Assembly (NCBI GenBank): GCA_964611975.1
Contig: CAZTBK010000004.1
Span: forward strand, 319 to 35,735
DNA length: 35,417 nucleotides
Reading direction: 5' to 3'
From: an uncultured Candidatus Bathyarchaeia archaeon
GTDB lineage: Archaea; Thermoproteota; Bathyarchaeia; RBG-16-48-13; JAGMEO01
Shown piece after piece: positions 24,200-34,199 of the stretch. The stretch's first letter is position 1, and every line of letters begins with the position of its first letter. Both the position numbers and the translations under genes were made by a program. The notes beneath the pieces were generated by a model. It saw only the letters and a list, made by a program, of their open reading frames with translations. It did no database searches and was not told the origin of the DNA.

Positions 24200-24583
24200 T
24201 TGGGGATTGAAATGTCTTACCCAAGGACCTTAAGCGAGGGGATAGAAGAGGGCGATTATAACTTTACGGTGTTCCTTTTTGAGGTGGAAAACGCTGCGAT
24301 AGTGCTATTCAACGAAAATGGGTATATGCGCTTAGGAACCCTCGCTGTGGCTATGCCTCATTTTAAGGGAGGTCCTAGCATCTCCTCTGCGATCTTAGGT
24401 GAAAGAAATGTGGTTATTACCAAAATATTGGCTGAGCGCCTCTCAGTCCATTTTAACAAAATAGTCCTCGTCTCAACTCATCTAAAGGAGATCAGGGAAA
24501 ACATGGCAAGATCTGCTTTAATGAGATTGACAAAGAGGCTGCTTGATAAGATTAAGAAAATTGATGAAGAATCTAACTTGTAG
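24200..24583 (+). CDS. Small conserved-looking hypothetical protein
   Basis: 127-aa ORF (TTG at 24200 or ATG at 24212) with coding-like composition. Its 3' end overlaps the convergent AcnX gene by 11 nt. No motif I can name with confidence. Confidence 0.55.
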   Translation: MGIEMSYPRTLSEGIEEGDYNFTVFLFEVENAAIVLFNENGYMRLGTLAVAMPHFKGGPSISSAILGERNVVITKILAERLSVHFNKIVLVSTHLKEIRENMARSALMRLTKRLLDKIKKIDEESNL

Positions 24584-25793
24584 TGCAGATTTCAATGCAT
24601 TTACGAAGGGGCACCATGCCCGATTTACATTTGCCCCTTGTTATCCTCGGAACATAGAAGGCTGCTTTAGCAGAGTTTGTGTACACGCATCTAAATCCCA
24701 TCTCCTCAATTGGAGCTACGACCATGCATGTATTCAAGAAAACATCCCCCCCGGCCGACTTTATTCTGTTCACGTATCCGGATTTTTTTGCCTCTCTGAA
24801 AACTTCCGGTGAAGTGAAGACCCAAAATTTGACACCCTTTTTAACCCTCCTTCCAGAGAGCAATTCCGCGGCCCTTTTTAGCTCTTGAATAGAAGAATGT
24901 GGGCACCCTATCGCAACTAGATCAGGCTCCTCATCCGTCGACAGCTCGTCATAGACGGATTCTATATCCCTCCTTGTCACCTCTATCGTGTATTCTGCCT
25001 CTCCTCCTCCAAAGGCGTCTTTGACGTTCTTAGCCTCAGGCGTTAGCCCTAGTATGTGGAAAAGGGCTACTGAGCCTGAGGCTGCTGAAGCAGCGCCTAA
25101 GAGCATGACCTCATTTAAAGAAGCGTTCCTTATTCCATCATACACGGGAACCTCGTCTATTTTAACTTCTCTGCCAACATAATACCCCAAAGCGGAGTAG
25201 TCCGCCTCACTATTAGGTTTAAAATCGACCTTTACGTGGACGTTCCCTATCCTATTTTCATCGATCAGATAACCCATCAACGGGACTTTGCCGATCATCG
25301 CAGCTGATAAGGCGTCTAACCCCCCGTGTCTGTTCGTCCTCGCCCCGATCACTGAGTTAACGAAGGCGACGGCTGATGACTCTGAGAAACCAACCATCTC
25401 ACCGAATTCAGGCTTGTTCCCTGAAAGATACGGTGTACATGTGCACGTGGCTCTCACTCCTAATTTTTCATATGCCCTACAGAGCCTTAGTTGTTTTTCA
25501 GCGAACTCATCTGGTATTCCCATCTCTCTCCATCTCTCGAGGTCCATCCCAGCAGGATTTTGGGTCGCCTTTGTCCTCACCTTGACATTCTCCTTGGCGA
25601 GTTCCTCTACCAGATGGAGAGTAGGACCTCCAGCTGTTTTATATGATACCCCAGCTATTTGCGACCTCTTAATCGGGACAAGCCTCTCGGCATCGTTCAG
25701 GTCACCGATCGTGGTTAACAACCTCATCGCTCTTTCTAGAGCCCACCCCCCCTCCCCATCAAGTATTTTCTCTTCCTCTTTGGAAAGGAACAT
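24573..25793 (-). CDS. Aconitase X catalytic subunit (DUF521), likely phosphomevalonate dehydratase large subunit
   Basis: CTCTPYL, GFSESSAVAFVNSVIGARTNRHGG, and 406 aa are typical of AcnX. It is paired with a DUF126 gene and has a UbiD gene nearby. Confidence 0.85.
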   Translation of the reverse strand: MFLSKEEEKILDGEGGWALERAMRLLTTIGDLNDAERLVPIKRSQIAGVSYKTAGGPTLHLVEELAKENVKVRTKATQNPAGMDLERWREMGIPDEFAEKQLRLCRAYEKLGVRATCTCTPYLSGNKPEFGEMVGFSESSAVAFVNSVIGARTNRHGGLDALSAAMIGKVPLMGYLIDENRIGNVHVKVDFKPNSEADYSALGYYVGREVKIDEVPVYDGIRNASLNEVMLLGAASAASGSVALFHILGLTPEAKNVKDAFGGGEAEYTIEVTRRDIESVYDELSTDEEPDLVAIGCPHSSIQELKRAAELLSGRRVKKGVKFWVFTSPEVFREAKKSGYVNRIKSAGGDVFLNTCMVVAPIEEMGFRCVYTNSAKAAFYVPRITRGKCKSGMVPLRKCIEICTTS

Positions 25794-26212
25794 CAGACCC
25801 TGCTGACCTCCTCTACATAGGCTACGTTACCCTTGATATATGCCTCTACCTCATCTCCGTTTTTTAGGAAATCGAAAATTCTCTCATCGATGTTCGAGAT
25901 CATCGGGACCTCGCCGAATACTGCTCCTGAAACGGTTATGAGATCTGCCCTGCGCGTGACGATCAGTTTCGGCGCCAGCCCCCTTTTAGATAAACCATAT
26001 ATGATATTGGACCCGACAGTGCTCCCCCTTCCCTCTTGAAATATGAAGATCTTGGATGACACACTCTTCCCCCTTATATCTAAATCTGCTCCAACGATCC
26101 GTCCCGTGTTAAGGTCCACATCGCCAAGGAACGATATTTTTGACTTGGTTATCAGGACTTCCCCCCGAATTCCTCCGCTCCATCTCTGAATGACCCTTCC
26201 TTTGAAGATCAT
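25793..26212 (-). CDS. Aconitase X swivel-domain subunit (DUF126), phosphomevalonate dehydratase small subunit
   Basis: GEVLITKSKISFLGDVDLNTGRIV..IFQEGRGSTVGSNIIYGL. It overlaps the large-subunit start by 1 nt. Confidence 0.82.
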   Translation of the reverse strand: MIFKGRVIQRWSGGIRGEVLITKSKISFLGDVDLNTGRIVGADLDIRGKSVSSKIFIFQEGRGSTVGSNIIYGLSKRGLAPKLIVTRRADLITVSGAVFGEVPMISNIDERIFDFLKNGDEVEAYIKGNVAYVEEVSRV

Positions 26213-26277
26213 GGCCCCAACCCCCTTCTTAAAAGATTTAAGGGTTCTGTAGGAGTATAAAGATTGAGACGGGCCAT

Positions 26278-27600
26278 ATGCATATAAGAGAGTTTATTGA
26301 GCTTCTTCGGAACGAGGGATGTTTGAAGGAGATTTCGGAGACCCTTTCTACAAAGTATGAGATTCCGTATGTACTTAAAAAATACGATGGTAAGAAAGCA
26401 GTTTTATTTACAAGCGTTAGGGGTTACAAAACGCAGATTTTCGGCGGCGCCCTCTGCAGGAGAGAATTTATAGCAAAGGGGCTGCAAACCTCACCTGAAA
26501 AAGTTCTCCAGAAAATAATACAATCCATGAAGAAACCTGTTAAACCTAAGGTCTTCAGCGATGGAGCATGCCAGGAGGTGGAGAGAGACGACGTGGACTT
26601 AATTCATGATTTGCCCATATTGACGCATTATGAAAAAGACGGTGGTCCATACATAACGAGCGGCATCGTGCTTGCCAAGGAACCTGAAACTGGAAGGGTG
26701 AACGCATCTTACCATCGAATGATGGTTATTGGGAAAGATAAGCTTGCGGCGCGCCTAGTAGAGGGTCGGGACCTCCACAGGTTTTATTCACAAAGCGAGT
26801 CTAAAGGGAGACCCCTTGAAGCAGCCGTGGTTATAGGGGCTCCTGTGGAGTTGCTCGTTGCCGCCGCTACTTCCCCTGGCCAGATGTGTGAGCTCGATGT
26901 GGCAGGTGGCCTCACCGGTTCTCCGTTAGAGCTAGTACATTGCAGAACAATCGACATCTCTGTCCCCCGTTATGCGGAGATGATCTTGGAGGGAGAATTC
27001 CTCCTCGAACATGCAAAAGAGGGCCCCTTCGTTGACGTCACAGGTTGCTATGACACCATCAGAGATCAGCCTGTTTTCGAGGTGGGCGCCCTCACCATGA
27101 GGGAGGACGCCCTCTATCAAGCTCTGTTGCCGGGCGGGATGGAGCATAAGTTGTTGATGGGTTTACCTCGTGAGGCTAAAATACTCGATACCGTTAGGTC
27201 AGTCAGCAAGGTCAGCGATGTCTCCCTTTCCATGGCAGGGTCGAACTGGCTAGATGCCATCATATCCATTAGGAAAACCCATCCGAACGAGCCATACTTG
27301 ACGGGTATGGCTGCGCTCACAGCTCATTACAGCCTTAAGAGGGTAATTATAGTTGACGATGACGTTGACGTCAGGGATATGTTGGCCGTTGAGAAGGCGA
27401 TCATAGAAAGGGCCCATCCTGCTGAGGATTACTTCATCATCAAGAATGTAAAGGGATCGACGTTAGACATGAGCGTGCTCCGTGAAGGAGGTGTAAAGTT
27501 GGCGCCTGCGAAGTTGATAATAGATGCCACGATCAAGGGAGAAAGGATGTTCTTTGAGAATGCTAAGATTCCAGTAAGAAAAAACTTTAAAGCGCCTTAA
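26278..27600 (+). CDS. UbiD-family decarboxylase, likely anhydromevalonate phosphate decarboxylase
   Basis: 440 aa. GGPYITSGIVLAKEPETGRVNASYHRM and the rest of the UbiD-like layout. Divergently transcribed from the AcnX pair. Confidence 0.82.
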   Translation: MHIREFIELLRNEGCLKEISETLSTKYEIPYVLKKYDGKKAVLFTSVRGYKTQIFGGALCRREFIAKGLQTSPEKVLQKIIQSMKKPVKPKVFSDGACQEVERDDVDLIHDLPILTHYEKDGGPYITSGIVLAKEPETGRVNASYHRMMVIGKDKLAARLVEGRDLHRFYSQSESKGRPLEAAVVIGAPVELLVAAATSPGQMCELDVAGGLTGSPLELVHCRTIDISVPRYAEMILEGEFLLEHAKEGPFVDVTGCYDTIRDQPVFEVGALTMREDALYQALLPGGMEHKLLMGLPREAKILDTVRSVSKVSDVSLSMAGSNWLDAIISIRKTHPNEPYLTGMAALTAHYSLKRVIIVDDDVDVRDMLAVEKAIIERAHPAEDYFIIKNVKGSTLDMSVLREGGVKLAPAKLIIDATIKGERMFFENAKIPVRKNFKAP

Positions 27601-29012: not shown

Positions 29013-29672
29013 ACCCTGGCCCCCCGATGAGATAAAAGCTCAATCTTATTTAAGAAGCTCAATTCCTGCTAATAAGGGTTCAGTTCACGTGAGCCCTACT
29101 TGATGACCATGAGGCCCAAGGCCTCACTAATCTCAGTCCCCTTGAGTTTATCAAGGATGCGCTATCAACTGAGAGATAATGCTTGGTCGGAAGGGGTTGT
29201 GAAGAGCTTATTACATAAAAGTGTTTTTCTATAATTCCCATGATAGCTAGTGGCAGCATGAAGTCGGCCCTGTGCTCTGCTCATAAAAACAGGGGGTAGG
29301 GAAGCCCACGACGTGACCGCGACATTCAAGGGCGCGGAACAGTGGTTGGTGTTATGACCCTGGAAGCTTTAGGTCTAGAGGGTTATCAACAACCAGAGAA
29401 CTCGAACCGCTGAGGCCAAAGGGAGTTATGTAACATCTAAAAACAGAAATCCTGAATAAGTCCGCTTTAACTTATCGATTAGGGCACCTTAAAACTATGA
29501 TAAAAACTATGAAGGATGTGGAGGGATAAAACTGAGGAATGAACGAACAAGACCTCCAATCATCGGAGTAGTTGGATCTGGTAGGGAAACTTCTGGTGGC
29601 CTCGCATACTCTTTAGGCAAGAGAATAGCCGAAAATGGCTTCATCCTCTTAACAGGTGGTGGATCTGGAGTT

Positions 29673-30035
29673 ATGGAGGAGGCATCGAGGGGGGCGCATG
29701 ATGCAGGTGGTCTAGTGATCGGTGTACTCCCAAATGAGCGGAAATGCCCTAAGCGAGGCTATCCGAATAAATATGTAGATATACCTATCTACACAGGGAT
29801 GTCCGATGCCAGAAATGCCATAAACGCTAAGACTAGTGATGTAATAGTTGCCTTAAAGGGAGGCGCAGGGACCTTATCCGAGATGGCTCTGGCTATAAAG
29901 AGTGGGACGCCGGTCGTTGGACTTGGTTGTCCAGCAATAGACATAGATACAGGCGGCCTCTTCGTGAGAGTCTCCTCGGTTGAAGAAGCGATGAGGGAAG
30001 TTAAAAAATTTCTAAGGAAACCTCTAACCGAGTAG
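29673..30035 (+). CDS. TIGR00725/LOG-like Rossmann-fold protein (track ORF; the conserved N-terminus lies upstream with no in-frame start)
   Basis: GVMEEASRGAHDAGGLVIGVLP..ALKGGAGTLSEMALAIKSGTPVV. In the same frame upstream (from about 29547) lies PPIIGVVGSGRETSGGLAYSLGKRIAENGFILLTGGGSG, but there is no ATG/GTG/TTG in that frame. Confidence 0.8.
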   Translation: MEEASRGAHDAGGLVIGVLPNERKCPKRGYPNKYVDIPIYTGMSDARNAINAKTSDVIVALKGGAGTLSEMALAIKSGTPVVGLGCPAIDIDTGGLFVRVSSVEEAMREVKKFLRKPLTE

Positions 30036-30686: not shown

Positions 30687-30798
30687 TTCAAGCTCATTTT
30701 CCTGAAAGGGATGTTCAACTTTTCTTGAGAAAAACGCTTTAATAATATATAAGATTATACTTTTTTAGGGGCTGATTCCTTCGTCCGAGATAACAAGC

Positions 30799-32118
30799 GT
30801 GCCCAGAGCCGAGCCTGAGTTTAGCGCATCTAAGGGGATAAGCGTCCCGGCTAAACCATGCCTCGTGCACGTCGGGAGCATAGGCACTTATGCCAGCAAC
30901 ATGTCTGCGAGGATCTGTTACCTTGCTCAGGCACTTGGATGCATGGGGATGTTTGGAAGCTGTCTGATCAGCGACTCTGAGATCGTGAACGTTGAGGCAA
31001 ACAGGCGTGCCCTCAAATTCATTAAAAGCGGGGTAATCGATAAGATCAAGGACATCATCAAACCGGTCAAGCGTGGAAAGAACTTCTTCTACACGACCTG
31101 GGGTCACCTTGGGTATGGGAAAAACGTCAATCGTGCGATCAGAAATGCTAGGTACTGGAGGCGAGACGTCCAACGGATAGAAGATGCCCTCCATAAGCAC
31201 TTTGAAGAGATCGGGTTTAGAACTAAGGTAGCGATCGTGGAGGAAGGTTTTGGCGGCACCAGCTTATCCCAAGGTGCTTACTTTCGCGCTCTGACCCGGA
31301 GGTACATCAGTGAGCTAGAGCATTACATAGGTATAGGGGTGATTGGTAAAGACCTACCGACCCAGCGTAACTTCAAGAAGTACTTCCCATTGCTCCTGGA
31401 GAGGGGCTTTAACCATAATGCTATGGTGTTATATGCGAATTGGCGCAGACCTCTTAAATTGGCGAGGAGGGAAATCGACTATCAAGTTGCCTATGGGGTG
31501 CTGGCGACCATCGCATCTTCGTTGTGGTGTCGAGATAAGCCAAGCATGATAGACATCTGGATGAACCTCGTAAGAAGCAGCCCGATAATCGCCGTTTCCA
31601 TAGATAATCAATACCTGCCGAGATATAGAAAGATGTTCCGGGAGCGAAAGGACAGCCCAGCCACGGTCAGCGTGCTGACATCTATGTTAAAGGGAGTTTG
31701 GCGAGATCCCAAAAAGTCTCTGCTTCGAGTCTGCGCTGACGCAGAAGAATTGGAGGGCCGAAAGGTTTTTGAGGTGGTCTCGGTGGTCGGGGACATCACC
31801 CGCGAAGAACTGGAAATCGCTGAAGAGTTAGCTGAACTCCCTGACACCGCTACGACTTTATTGCTAAGTTCTAGACGTATGAAAAAGATTTACGTCACTA
31901 GGTTTACTCCATTAGTGACAACCTCGCCTGAAATCGATAAAGTATTTAATGTGAAGCGTGAACCTGAAATGATCGAAGAGATTAGTGACCTCATCCCTGT
32001 TGGGAAGAAGCGTTATAATGAGTTGGTGGAAGAAGGGTTAAAGGACTATAAGGTCTTTGAGAAGGTCGTTGAGTTTCCAGTCGATGAGTTAGTTGGGGAG
32101 GCTTGGTCGTATGAATAA
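30799..32118 (+). CDS. Highly divergent FtsZ/tubulin-superfamily-like protein with degenerate GTP-binding motifs
   Basis: 439 aa, GTG start. Collinear weak matches to FtsZ landmarks: VHVGSIGTYASN (T1), GHLGYGKNVNRA (T3), VEEGFGGTSLSQG (T4), IGIGVIGKDLP, SMIDIWMNLV (T7/H8), FEVVSVVGDITREELEIAEELAE (C-terminal domain). The antisense ORF 30739-31200 is a shadow. Confidence 0.55.
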   Translation: MPRAEPEFSASKGISVPAKPCLVHVGSIGTYASNMSARICYLAQALGCMGMFGSCLISDSEIVNVEANRRALKFIKSGVIDKIKDIIKPVKRGKNFFYTTWGHLGYGKNVNRAIRNARYWRRDVQRIEDALHKHFEEIGFRTKVAIVEEGFGGTSLSQGAYFRALTRRYISELEHYIGIGVIGKDLPTQRNFKKYFPLLLERGFNHNAMVLYANWRRPLKLARREIDYQVAYGVLATIASSLWCRDKPSMIDIWMNLVRSSPIIAVSIDNQYLPRYRKMFRERKDSPATVSVLTSMLKGVWRDPKKSLLRVCADAEELEGRKVFEVVSVVGDITREELEIAEELAELPDTATTLLLSSRRMKKIYVTRFTPLVTTSPEIDKVFNVKREPEMIEEISDLIPVGKKRYNELVEEGLKDYKVFEKVVEFPVDELVGEAWSYE

Positions 32119-32932
32119 GTATGGTTTATTCTTACTTGTGGCTCTGCTCATGGTAACGCTGCCAGTCACATCAGCTGCATCAAGCGTCCAGGTTAAGTTA
32201 ATTGAATTCTATTTGGGTGGGGAATCTGTCGAGACCATAGCTAACCCCCCATCATCGAAAACGTTGACTTTAGGTTCCGAATATGTGGGGCAGGAAACCG
32301 CTCGGATAGTGATCACAGTGGTGAACCCTGATGGCATGAACGTCACATGGGACCTCTGGACTGGCCTCGTGGGATCAGCGATCAAGGGAGAGAGCGGGGT
32401 GCCCATTGGAGAGCAGACGAGCGGGAGCACTTGGAGAGCCACGACGGACGCTAAGATTATTATAATTACCGTTACGGGTACCGTTGACTGGGAGAACCTT
32501 CAAGAGGCAGCTCCTGTCATCATACTGCGCTACTCAACAAATGAAGACGTGTTGACTCCGCTATTGACCTTTAGCCTGAAGGTGTCTGAGCCTTCTGGTG
32601 GGCCTAAAGTGGAGGCACAGGCCGCTATCACGGAGCTGGAGACCGAGCTCTCCGGCTCAAACCTACCTGCATACAGGAGGAGTTACTATGAGTCACAGTT
32701 GTACAAAGCTAAACTATACCTTCAAAATGAGGCCTATGACAGCGCGTTGATCACGGCGCAGACGGCCCTAAATGACCTACGTGCGGAATTAGCTGAATAC
32801 AATAGCCCGGTGAACGTCGTATTTCGGTTCCTATATAACAATGTGATGTTGGTGGCCGGGTTAGCTGGTATAGCGGCTCTTGTACTGTTCGCTTCTAGGC
32901 TGTGGAAGGGAGGGCCTGTGACAATGCCCTAG
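32111..32932 (+). CDS. Signal-peptide protein with beta-rich ectodomain, helical stalk and C-terminal TM anchor
   Basis: MNKYGLFLLVALLMVTLPVTSAAS signal peptide, and a C-terminal hydrophobic helix VMLVAGLAGIAALVLFA. ATG 32111 overlaps the upstream TAA (ATGAATAA). The track start at 32093 is less likely. Confidence 0.72.
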   Translation: MNKYGLFLLVALLMVTLPVTSAASSVQVKLIEFYLGGESVETIANPPSSKTLTLGSEYVGQETARIVITVVNPDGMNVTWDLWTGLVGSAIKGESGVPIGEQTSGSTWRATTDAKIIIITVTGTVDWENLQEAAPVIILRYSTNEDVLTPLLTFSLKVSEPSGGPKVEAQAAITELETELSGSNLPAYRRSYYESQLYKAKLYLQNEAYDSALITAQTALNDLRAELAEYNSPVNVVFRFLYNNVMLVAGLAGIAALVLFASRLWKGGPVTMP

Positions 32933-33091: not shown

Positions 33092-34199
33092 CTATTCATA
33101 GAGCTTGGAAGCTAGGGCAGCTCCCTTGACAAGGCTTCTAAGCTTGAGCTTCGTCACCTTATAGCTCACGTTTCTAAGCCCAGCAAACGTCCCAAACCCA
33201 CAGTCCGGTGCCCCGAGAAGGTTCTCTGGTTTCACTATCCCCTCATCAACGAATCTGCATAAACTCTGCTTCACTGCTTCCGGCGTCTCTACAATCGGCG
33301 TCTTTACATCTATGACACCAGCAGCAAGCTTTTTTCCATCTGGCAGCGGGTGCTCCTTGAACGCGGTCCAGTCAGCTCTGTGCCTAGGATTTGCTAGTTC
33401 CAGCACATACGTCCCAACCTTCGCCTCATATATCTGAGGTAAGAGATCAACTAACGGAAAATCCTCATTGTGAGGACCAATGTAATTTCCGTAGCAGGCA
33501 TGCAAGGCAAGCTTATCTTTGCTTATTCCATCTATCGATTTGTTTAAAGCCTCCACATGAAGCCTCTGATATTCGATGTACTTTTCCTTCGTGAACTTGA
33601 GAAAAGGTCCAACCATAAGGAGGTCTGGCGAATCCAACTGAACTAATGCCCCGGCGTCCGTTAAAGTTTTATATTCACGATGCATGGCCTCAGCAAGTTC
33701 AAAGAGACGGTCTTCAGCCTGATAAAAGAACGCTAATACCCCCCGGCGATGCAGCTGGGACCTTAATAGTGACATCTAGAGGCGCGCCCCTCTCCTTCTC
33801 TACCTCCTTTAGAACCTCCTTCGAAAAATTATACTCCTTTAAGGCGTCTTCCTCTCCTATGTACTCAGGTTTGCTGACGAGTTTAGGGAAACGGAACAAG
33901 CTAGGCTCGATCGGCGGCATCTCCACTGGAAGCTCTGTTGGAACAGGAAGACTTACGAACTCTTTATCAGAGAATCCCTTTAGCCTTTTTTGCACATAAT
34001 GGACGTATCCTCTCCTTGTTAGCTCGCCGTTAGAGATTTCGTCCAAGCCTATATCCACCTGATCTCTTATCACCCTCCTGATGGCTATGTTAGAAAGCTC
34101 CCGTAGTAGGTCTGGTGGAAACTCAGGATCCTTTTGCGCTGCCAAAAGCCAGTCCGGCCTCTGTAAGCTACCTATAACCGTGGTTCGAATTTTCCCCAT
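33092..34199 (-). pseudogene. metE: Cobalamin-independent methionine synthase (MetE C-terminal-domain)-like methyltransferase, split by a frameshift at a C6 run
   Basis: Two overlapping ORFs (33714-34199 and 33092-33775) are the N- and C-halves of one family member: TTVIGSLQRP..; VQLDSPDL; HACYGN; PDCGFG. Removing one G from the G6 run (plus strand C6 at 33739-33744) gives a continuous ..KVPAASPGVLAFFYQAED.. Confidence 0.82.

Follow-up and report, generated by a model that had tools for sequence, protein, structure and literature searches.

To our knowledge, neither FtsZ nor CetZ is attached to the membrane via a type-I extracellular protein. SepF is the membrane anchor of archaeal FtsZ (PMC8178401). 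A precedent for highly divergent members of the tubulin/FtsZ superfamily in membrane-protein operons is provided by FtsZl-1 and FtsZl-2 (Makarova & Koonin 2010; Tubulin_2; PMC2875224). These divergent families, for which a role in membrane remodelling was proposed, are encoded in operons with membrane-associated proteins, their neighbours being a vWA protein, a distinct GTPase and OmpA-family proteins. A 2023 survey of the superfamily gathered its members via PF00091 (PMC9871819), and a single 'Bathyarchaeia tubulin', detectable by sequence and located near the Odin clade, has been reported (PMC13394414). The Ced DNA-import system has four parts, CedA1, CedA, CedA2 and CedB (PMC9905601). Recent reports add CedD, CedE and UpsC, which are paralogous to CedB, CedA and UpsA/B (PMC11868833, PMC11823120).

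Here we describe a gene pair in a 35,417-nucleotide (nt) stretch of DNA, referred to as the window, from an uncultured Candidatus Bathyarchaeia archaeon (contig CAZTBK010000004.1). Gene A (30799-32118, + strand) is an open reading frame (ORF) of 439 amino acids (aa) with a GTG start, and gene B (32111-32932, + strand) is a 273-aa ORF with an ATG start. An earlier reading of the DNA letters, the original prediction, had taken A for a degenerate FtsZ/tubulin-fold protein translationally coupled to a membrane-anchored extracellular protein. Its coordinates, its A sequence and the overlap ATGAATAA between the two genes were matched exactly on re-reading. Our analysis predicts that A is a cytoplasmic protein with a tubulin/FtsZ-superfamily fold, the founder of what we call subfamily 1, and that B is a type-I membrane protein. 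The A family is real, conserved and apparently undescribed, inside a known superfamily.

Protein A is predicted to have a tubulin/FtsZ-superfamily fold

Protein A was modelled with AlphaFold2 (AF2), without templates, on a 13-sequence alignment of close and distant relatives (alignment A3). The best model had a predicted local distance difference test score (pLDDT) of 74.7 and a predicted template modelling score of 0.80. The order of its elements is tubulin/FtsZ-like (S1-H1-S2-H2-(S3)-H3-S4-H4-S5-H5-S6-H7-H8-S7-H9-S8-H10-S9-S10, followed by C-terminal helices), and it contains the Rossmann-type N-terminal domain, helix H7 and C-terminal domain by which the superfamily fold is recognised. Foldseek with this model returned 1006 matches in the PDB at E<=1e-3. 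The best 50 of the 1006 were all tubulin or microtubule entries, with E-values of 1e-12 to 4e-11, template modelling (TM) scores of 0.49-0.55, ~480 aligned columns and 11-15% identity. Of the eight best matches among the viral models of BFVD, five were named FtsZ, cell-division protein, tubulin or PhuZ and three were unnamed. Judged from this one AF2 run on a shallow alignment, A very likely has a tubulin/FtsZ-superfamily fold. The original prediction had offered structure prediction and Foldseek as a way to refute it, and these returned the fold that it had proposed. Its emphasis on FtsZ was not supported: the best structural matches are tubulins rather than FtsZ, and the model has tubulin-like helices past S10.

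The C-terminal helices (residues 403-432) and the tail DELVGEAWSYE are encoded at 32005-32115 (+). The model places helices at 403-424 and 428-432 with pLDDT 80-89.

Sequence searches and the putative nucleotide pocket of A

At the sequence level, A did not match any described family. Neither A nor its distant relatives matched a Pfam family at E<=10, which for A includes PF00091, FtsZ_C, Tubulin_C, Tubulin_2 and Tubulin_3. Searches of A against NCBIfam, PADLOC and PHROGs returned only noise, and PDB sequences searched by phmmer and hmmsearch with A and its A1 and A4 profiles yielded neither tubulin nor FtsZ. Matches to aspartate kinase (0.033), RecO (0.084), a YbaB-like protein (0.05), DruE (0.009) and Mitoguardin (0.13) were dismissed as noise. 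A literature and database search found no name, Pfam or NCBIfam family or paper describing the A family, and thus no sign that it has already been characterised under another name, an outcome that would have spoken against the original prediction. Since the family has no PF00091 match, the survey of PMC9871819 would have missed it. The Bathyarchaeia tubulin of PMC13394414 is a different protein from A.

For register only, we aligned A with tubulins and FtsZ by hhalign, the targets being single sequences and mini-alignments of alpha-, beta- and gamma-tubulin and of Mj, Ec and Bs FtsZ. Among the reference sequences, those of MjFtsZ and alpha-tubulin were verified by full-length PDB matches of 762 and 1053 bits. 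The alignment of A with alpha-tubulin was collinear over residues 18-435, though not significant. In this non-significant register, HVGSIGTYASN of A is paired with HVGQAGVQIGN of alpha-tubulin in T1, GYGKNV with AANNYA in T3, GFGGT-S with FGGGTGS in T4, VLYAN with MVDNEA in T6, VVGDITREELEIA with YRGDVVPKDVNAA in S8-H10, and EEGLKDYKVFEK with ALEKDYEEVG (H12) in an H11/H12-like alignment. The S6/T6/H7 pairing with FtsZ, VLYANW...IDYQV with VVIPNEKL...ADEVL, was likewise not significant. The motif pairs listed in the original prediction were in the correct register and coincide with loops of the predicted fold, and their sequence similarity was not above chance.

The segments located in this way are well conserved. 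Putative T1 (residues 24-34, HVGSIGTYASN; 30868-30900, +) lies between S1 (23-28) and H1 (30-45) of the model; nine of its 12 columns are invariant in subfamily 1, and G29 and T30 are also found in the distant subfamily. Putative T3 (residues 100-110, TWGHLGYGKNV; 31096-31128, +), placed opposite tubulin GAGNNWA by the non-significant hhalign register, has eight of 11 columns invariant in subfamily 1 in a region of low model confidence (pLDDT ~50). Putative T4 (residues 148-159, EEGFGGTSLSQG; 31240-31275, +), assigned from hhalign to tubulin T4, follows model S4 (144-150) and is invariant at 11 of 13 columns; its distant-subfamily counterpart is SLAGGHAGAP. The putative S6/T6-H7 start (residues 211-227, from LYANW to D227; 31429-31479, +) falls on model S6 (208-213) and H7 (223-243). 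Here N214 takes the position of the Asn of tubulin DNEA and FtsZ PNE in the non-significant hhalign register, and D227 is invariant in both subfamilies. Putative T7/H8 (residues 250-257, MIDIWMNL; 31546-31569, +) lies on model H8 (250-260), with D252 and L257 invariant in both subfamilies and I253 and W254 nearly so. Overall, 59% of positions in the putative T1-T7 segments are invariant in subfamily 1, compared with 35% elsewhere (Fisher p=9e-5), and G29-T30 (T1), D59 (T2), G105 (T3), D227 (H7) and D252-I-W..L (T7/H8) are kept across both subfamilies. The T1 GxxG (G26/G29), N214 and D227 are conserved at the expected places, their equivalence being taken from the non-significant alignment and the secondary structure of the model rather than from a superposition.

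The original prediction held that every glycine-rich motif of A is eroded, which is too strong: T1 keeps HVGxxG...N, T3 keeps GxG and T4 keeps GGT. Nor does 'degenerate' describe the protein well, as the loops are diverged but conserved, with the putative T1 GxxG, T4 GG[T/H], T6 Asn, H7 Asp and T7 Asp surviving. Non-canonical loops under such strong constraint argue for a working pocket, one that has diverged rather than decayed.

The T7 acidic residue of FtsZ and alpha-tubulin is catalytic and activates hydrolysis in the neighbouring subunit; beta- and gamma-tubulin have no acidic T7 residue, yet assemble. In A, the position +3 from D252 (M255) is M, V, T, Q, H, Y, F, R, N or A across the two subfamilies and never acidic, in an alignment made by eye. 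In this respect A appears to resemble beta- and gamma-tubulin, which suggests weak or partner-dependent hydrolysis.

Genes A and B are conserved as an overlapping pair

Both genes have homologues in metagenomes. For A we found ten homologue clusters at 63-82% identity, all of them unnamed metagenome proteins and none with a Pfam domain. For B there were ten clusters at 61-70% identity, all metagenomic and at most named 'hypothetical protein', and the B copies carried by the retrieved loci show 48-56% identity. The ratio of nonsynonymous to synonymous substitution rates (dN/dS) relative to the closest relatives was ~0.08 in A and ranged from 0.08 to 0.19 in B; dS was near saturation. A and B are genuine genes under purifying selection. 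In a scan of GTDB, A was encoded in three genomes, all metagenome-assembled genomes of Bathyarchaeia.

B lies directly 3' of A in the window and in loci L001-L007, L016, L017 and L018. In the window the overlap ATGAATAA (32111-32118, +), read directly from the sequence, places the B start codon over the A stop codon TAA. The same form is present in L016 and L017, and a 4-nt ATGA is found in L001-L005 and L007. The A-B arrangement with its start/stop overlap is kept in every such relative with enough flanking DNA, as the original prediction would have it. A Shine-Dalgarno-like (SD-like) GGGGAGG (32095-32101, +) lies within the last codons of A, 9 nt ahead of the B ATG, and purine-rich variants (GGGGAGG, GAGGTG) stand ~9-15 nt ahead of the B ATG in L016, L017, L007, L004, L001 and L005. 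This motif inside A may serve as the ribosome-binding site of B. Upstream of A, the 112-nt gap past the Ogg gene contains an element resembling a B recognition element and TATA box, GAAAAACGCTTTAATAATATATAAG (30728-30756, +; read directly), whose core 'TTCTTGAGAAAAACG(C/T)TTTAATA' is kept in the window, L016 and L017 and which is a putative promoter.

The tail of A is involved in the same arrangement. Residues L431, G433 and W436 do not vary within subfamily 1, and the G-E-x-W codons of the tail (GGGGAGG..TGG) are the SD-like site of B. Only E-x-L-[LV] of the tail is common to relatives without B. Part of the tail conservation may therefore reflect a ribosome-binding constraint, and the double duty of these codons weakens the idea, put forward in the original prediction, of the tail as a docking peptide.

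The start of A varies by a few codons among relatives. The in-frame codons just 5' of the GTG (30766-30798, ..LIPSSEITS) match the extended N-termini of homologues (SSEITSVPR in P0003) and include no canonical start codon.

Protein B has the layout that the original prediction had given it, as judged by alignment (A2) and hydropathy. A signal peptide (residues 1-24, MNKYGLFLLVALLMVTLPVTSAAS) is followed by a beta-rich ectodomain of ~140 aa (25-~158), the Pro/Gly linker EPSGGP, a helical hairpin (~168-232), one transmembrane helix (~240-265) and the tail RLWKGGPVTMP; the hydropathy segments are 1-28 and 240-265. The helical segment YYESQLYKAKLY...ALxxLRAExAEYN is the best-conserved part of B, with YYESQLYKAKLY invariant in 11 sequences. 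The cytoplasmic tail has 8-11 residues across loci and an invariant final Pro. No match to B was found in Pfam, NCBIfam or the PDB. A type-IV-pilin-like B with a class III signal was considered and rejected: the N-terminus has no charged-[GA] cleavage motif, judged by eye, and is therefore read as a Sec signal peptide.

SlaB-type S-layer stalk proteins have a Sec signal peptide, a beta extracellular domain, a helical or coiled stalk and a C-terminal transmembrane anchor. B is alike in this layout, with a beta ectodomain, a helical stalk and a single C-terminal transmembrane helix, a comparison of architecture only. B differs in that it is far smaller, has a single beta domain, resembles no named family in sequence and has no SlaA-like partner.

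The genes around the pair vary. Ogg lies upstream of A in the synteny Tmk-p27-UPF0147-Ogg-A-B, which adjoins RNA polymerase and Nop5/fibrillarin genes and is shared by the window and its closer relatives L016 and L017. In more distant relatives the upstream side carries tRNA-Glu with an integrase or TraX, a gene for an EamA transporter or one for a 2229-aa surface protein with CBM96. Downstream of the pair, MetE-like, ELP3-like radical-SAM or PUA-domain methyltransferase genes occur. The window encodes Topo VI A/B, primase, AglB, eIF2alpha, a Clp1-like kinase, AcnX/UbiD, Tmk and Ogg, and the neighbours of A-B in it are Ogg, SLOG, UPF0147, Tmk and a MetE-like gene. The guanine-cytosine (GC) content of A-B does not differ from that of its flanks. 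In the window, the pair is located on the core chromosome.

An integrase lies upstream of A in L001-L003. Just upstream of A we observed an intron-containing tRNA-Glu(TTC) in the regions L001:3-776, L002:726-824 and L005:5061-5797, with a tyrosine recombinase on its far side in L001 and a TraX-family gene in L005. Because the tRNA-Glu stands between the integrase and A, it appears to mark an integration hotspot beside A-B, with the pair not inside a mobile element. The L001 integrase was accordingly set aside as a sign of A-B mobility, given the intervening tRNA-Glu and the core synteny of closer relatives. In L004, a gap of 146 nt separates A from the end of the gene for the 2229-aa predicted surface protein (L004:1166-7855; CBM96, CarboxypepD_reg and SpaA-like domains), which lies upstream on the strand of A, and the gene before it encodes a 260-aa protein with weak matches to helix-turn-helix and CdvA-like coiled-coil sequences (E~1e-3, below threshold).

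Two distant relatives of A are found in Ced-like operons

An exhaustive hidden Markov model search of 1.84 billion representatives found five distant relatives of A, P0023-P0027, at ~20% identity (E 6e-17 to 4e-5). A word-indexed search with A3 re-found only P0025, and a metagenome scan re-found L009 and two fragments. A had no match in IMG/VR, 72,556 plasmids or 50,697 phage records.

Two of the relatives, P0025 (L008) and P0024 (L009/L010), share 44% identity, and their identity to A is 22% (BLASTP E~1e-13, small database). Each of their genes starts 1-4 nt inside the stop of a gene for a 913-958-aa ATPase with two N-terminal transmembrane helices and HerA/VirB4/TraG-type P-loop domains (DUF87 7e-17, P-loop_TraG 8.5e-11). 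Ahead of the ATPase are genes for an 84-aa CedA1-family protein with two transmembrane helices, a polytopic protein of ~290 aa whose N-terminus is CedA1-like, and a 65-aa protein with two transmembrane helices. The operons in L008-L010 thus match the four-part Ced composition of PMC9905601, with P0024 and P0025 as a fifth, translationally coupled gene. Complete Ced-like four-gene sets were observed at L008:3918-9299 and L009:3767-9281, and also in L010 and L013, and are followed by the coupled gene with the predicted tubulin fold. Ced and Ted are DNA-exchange systems of Thermoproteota derived from type IV secretion systems (T4SSs), and a literature search found no tubulin-like component described for them or for any other system of the T4SS kind.

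None of the Ced-like relative loci contains a B homologue, and the 35-kb window has none of the Ced genes for polytopic CedA, pilin-like CedA1 with its two transmembrane helices or the VirB4-like ATPase CedB; the window locus is not a Ced system. The Ced-linked contigs are probably of TACK/Bathyarchaeia origin, and a comparison of marker genes for their taxonomy found no informative shared genes. Ogg/HhH-GPD was rejected as a neighbour common to both subfamilies: the Ogg of the window and the HhH-GPD gene of L009 have no BLAST similarity, and we regard their occurrence as a coincidence.

Genes of defence or mobile-element type occur around members of the distant subfamily (subfamily 2). P0026 (L011/L012) has an integrase-like fragment and a gene for PycTM, which is Pycsar effector-like, in its vicinity (L011:6954-8222), and a SIR2_2 gene is present at L008:1-1085. 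P0027 (L019:173-1057) is an N-terminally truncated subfamily-2 copy of 294 aa on a 2-kb contig. It does not include the T1-T3 region, perhaps because it is in decay or because it represents a short variant form. The ORF downstream of it was considered as an integrase and was not confirmed by Pfam.

Discussion

Comparison with described families places A outside each of them by its defining features: A is not FtsZ, CetZ, TubZ/PhuZ or FtsZl-1/2. With the tubulins (alpha, beta and gamma; Odin and Asgard; BtubA/B), A has in common the T1 HVGxxGxxxxN, the H11/H12-like helices and a full-length structural match, but the identity is 11-15%, GFGGTSLS stands for GGGTGSG, there is no sign of a heterodimer partner and a single-pass membrane protein is encoded alongside A. 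FtsZ and CetZ are alike in the predicted superfamily fold, the short conserved C-terminal peptide, which in FtsZ follows a linker and binds SepF/FtsA, and the S6/T6/H7 register (MjFtsZ, not significant), whereas A has no FtsZ_C or Tubulin profile match, carries extra C-terminal helices past S10 and reduces the T7 NxDxxD of FtsZ to a single Asp. No SepF or division genes were found near A within the window. In line with the original view that A is not a standard FtsZ, CetZ or tubulin, A matches neither the sequence profiles nor the signature motif of the superfamily and has neither their defining C-terminal domains nor their neighbours. TubZ and PhuZ carry C-terminal extensions, and A is likewise divergent, with C-terminal helices, phage FtsZ, tubulin and PhuZ as its best viral structural matches and a distant subfamily in mobile-looking loci; A-B differs in being core chromosomal and without a match in the plasmid, phage and IMG/VR collections. 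Nothing resembling a TubR, another adaptor gene or a centromere was noticed next to A, where no dedicated search was made. FtsZl-1 and FtsZl-2 offer a parallel in their operons with membrane proteins, but A has no Tubulin_2 match, no vWA, GTPase or OmpA neighbours, and a different, taxonomically far narrower range.

We tentatively favour, at a little below an even chance, the reading that A is a very divergent tubulin/FtsZ member in an undescribed family and acts at the membrane with envelope-spanning partners. A would combine a Rossmann-type nucleotide-binding N-domain, H7, a C-domain and tubulin-like post-S10 helices with a conserved non-canonical pocket. It would bind nucleotide, probably GTP, and self-associate head-to-tail at the cytoplasmic face of the membrane. 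Hydrolysis would probably be slow or absent, since A has a non-acidic residue at the T7 position where FtsZ and alpha-tubulin carry an acidic one. Start/stop coupling and the internal ribosome-binding site would have A made in fixed proportion with B, and since B is almost wholly extracellular, A-B would connect a tubulin-like assembly in the cytoplasm with an envelope structure. The membrane partner would differ by subfamily, being B in one and the Ced machine in the other. As two distant relatives are likewise coupled to a VirB4/CedB-like ATPase, the ancestral protein probably partnered an envelope-spanning machine from the cytoplasmic side, as its scaffold, positioner or motor. Chromosomal A-B would then be an exapted, vertically inherited descendant of a DNA-transfer-associated form in this Bathyarchaeia clade, or the reverse. 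We infer nucleotide binding, polymerisation, an A-B contact, a cellular role and, with them, the 'cytoskeletal/envelope module' of the original prediction. It is possible, if rather doubtful, that the A family is a deep branch of the superfamily whose ancestor formed a nucleotide-driven filament or ring partnering a VirB4-like ATPase, and that A-B was exapted with a surface protein in a Bathyarchaeia clade.

Several observations weigh against the membrane-partner reading of A. Sequence methods give no support for tubulin/FtsZ homology, the hhalign comparisons of the A1, A3 and A4 profiles with tubulin and FtsZ reaching only E 0.07-0.9. AF2 with the ten close homologues gave pLDDT 31; the five models of the A3 run ranged from pLDDT 44.6 to 74.7, two of the five being confident, and confidence was higher in the C-terminal half (pLDDT 80-95) than in the N-terminal domain (50-75; N-domain/T3 48-70). 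The T4 signature [SAG]-G-G-T-G-[SA]-G is not intact, A having GFGGTSLS and the distant subfamily LAGGHAG, with only GG[T/H] kept. As the T7 acid also seems to be gone, GTPase-driven dynamics may be absent. B offers A only ~8-11 cytoplasmic residues for contact, and no covariation between the A tail and the B tail is visible across loci. The family is extremely rare, with ~10 + 5 clusters (50-90%) among billions of proteins. The link to Ced comes from two independent operons, and P0026 adjoins neither Ced genes nor B.

The incomplete T4 signature and the non-acidic T7 +3 position in both subfamilies would also suit a tubulin-fold regulator or pseudo-GTPase that does not polymerise, a monomeric or dimeric adaptor with B as its co-expressed partner or client. 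The extreme sequence divergence of A from all polymerising families points the same way, and the Ced-like operons, which couple a relative 1:1 to a hexameric-type ATPase, suit an adaptor as well as a polymer. Nevertheless, T7/H8 (D252-I-W-x-N-L), a longitudinal interface in tubulins, is among the few stretches kept in both subfamilies, the model retains the full two-domain architecture with C-terminal helices, and beta- and gamma-tubulin show that assembly can proceed without the T7 acid. We consider the adaptor unlikely, if a serious competitor. Adjacency of A and B through genome compaction, with no joint function and a role for A unrelated to the envelope, seems to us improbable. The pair is kept in ten subfamily-1 loci, the window included, while flanking genes change; the overlap is kept in two sequence forms, the SD-like site is retained and the pair has its own conserved promoter-like element. 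Short gene overlaps are nevertheless common in compact archaeal genomes, the distant relatives of A have no B, and the short cytoplasmic part of B and the missing tail covariation speak for this reading.

A different origin for the pair would be a mobile-element remnant, with A as a TubZ/PhuZ-like segregation protein from an integrated plasmid or virus and B as a surface protein of the element acting, for example, in exclusion or adhesion. The mobile-looking settings of the distant subfamily (Ced/conjugation-like operons, SIR2_2, PycTM, the integrase-like fragment and the L019 truncation), the integrase upstream of A in L001-L003, the C-terminal extensions of TubZ/PhuZ and the viral structural matches are in keeping with this. 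It is very unlikely in view of the core synteny without an integrase in the window, L016 and L017, the flank-like GC content, the tRNA-Glu that separates the variable integrase/TraX side from A in L001, L002 and L005, the empty plasmid, phage and IMG/VR searches and the lack of a noted segregation partner, for which no dedicated search was made. The divergence of A also fits vertical inheritance (63-82% identity, conserved neighbours). If anything still less probable is a modelling artefact, in which A would be some other Rossmann-like alpha/beta protein and its T-loop likeness a coincidence. The silence of sequence methods and the uneven AF2 runs described above, and a structural match that is moderate at a TM score of 0.5 and a root-mean-square deviation of 8-10 angstroms, could be read in this way. 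However, a template-free model matches tubulin over both domains, the best 50 of 1006 matches belong to one superfamily, and a separate viral library returned FtsZ, PhuZ and tubulin. The non-significant hhalign alignment, made independently and collinear over its length, puts each conserved Gly-rich loop on the matching T-loop, and the original prediction had reached the same mapping from the letters alone.

A family visible only by structure, with no match to the Pfam Tubulin profile, means that such branches of the superfamily still exist in archaea. Tubulin-like proteins have no known precedent for a fixed pairing with a membrane-anchored extracellular protein, in line with the original remark that the partnership was unfamiliar, or for a gene translationally coupled to that of a VirB4-like ATPase in Ced-type operons. 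Were A to polymerise, it would represent a new membrane-tethering logic for prokaryotic cytoskeletons and a candidate missing component of the poorly understood archaeal DNA-exchange machinery. If the ancestral Ced role is true, a tubulin-like component would be known for the first time from an apparatus related to type IV secretion. Bathyarchaeia form an abundant, uncultured group whose cell biology is almost wholly uncharted. With about fifteen 50-90% clusters among billions of proteins, the biological reach of the family may be narrow.

Other features of the window

Upstream of A, a SLOG/LOG-like gene (29526-30035, +) is full length and in frame, with 79% identity over 164 aa to its L016 homologue. 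It has no ATG, GTG or TTG before 29673, and the codon opposite the GTG of the homologue is ATA. The gene thus has either a non-canonical start or a product without the N-terminal GVVGSG motif. Downstream of B, a Meth_synt_2 cobalamin-independent methionine-synthase-like gene (33092-34199, - strand) is split over two overlapping frames (33714-34199 and 33092-33775), the frameshift being either that of a pseudogene or an assembly error. A 141-nt Rfam tRNA match (1744-1884, - strand; 43 bits), presumably intron-containing, was not reported by ARAGORN. AcnX-family and UbiD-family genes are located on opposite strands at 24573-27600 with a small ORF between them, and this pair resembles the dehydratase/decarboxylase of the archaeal modified mevalonate pathway.

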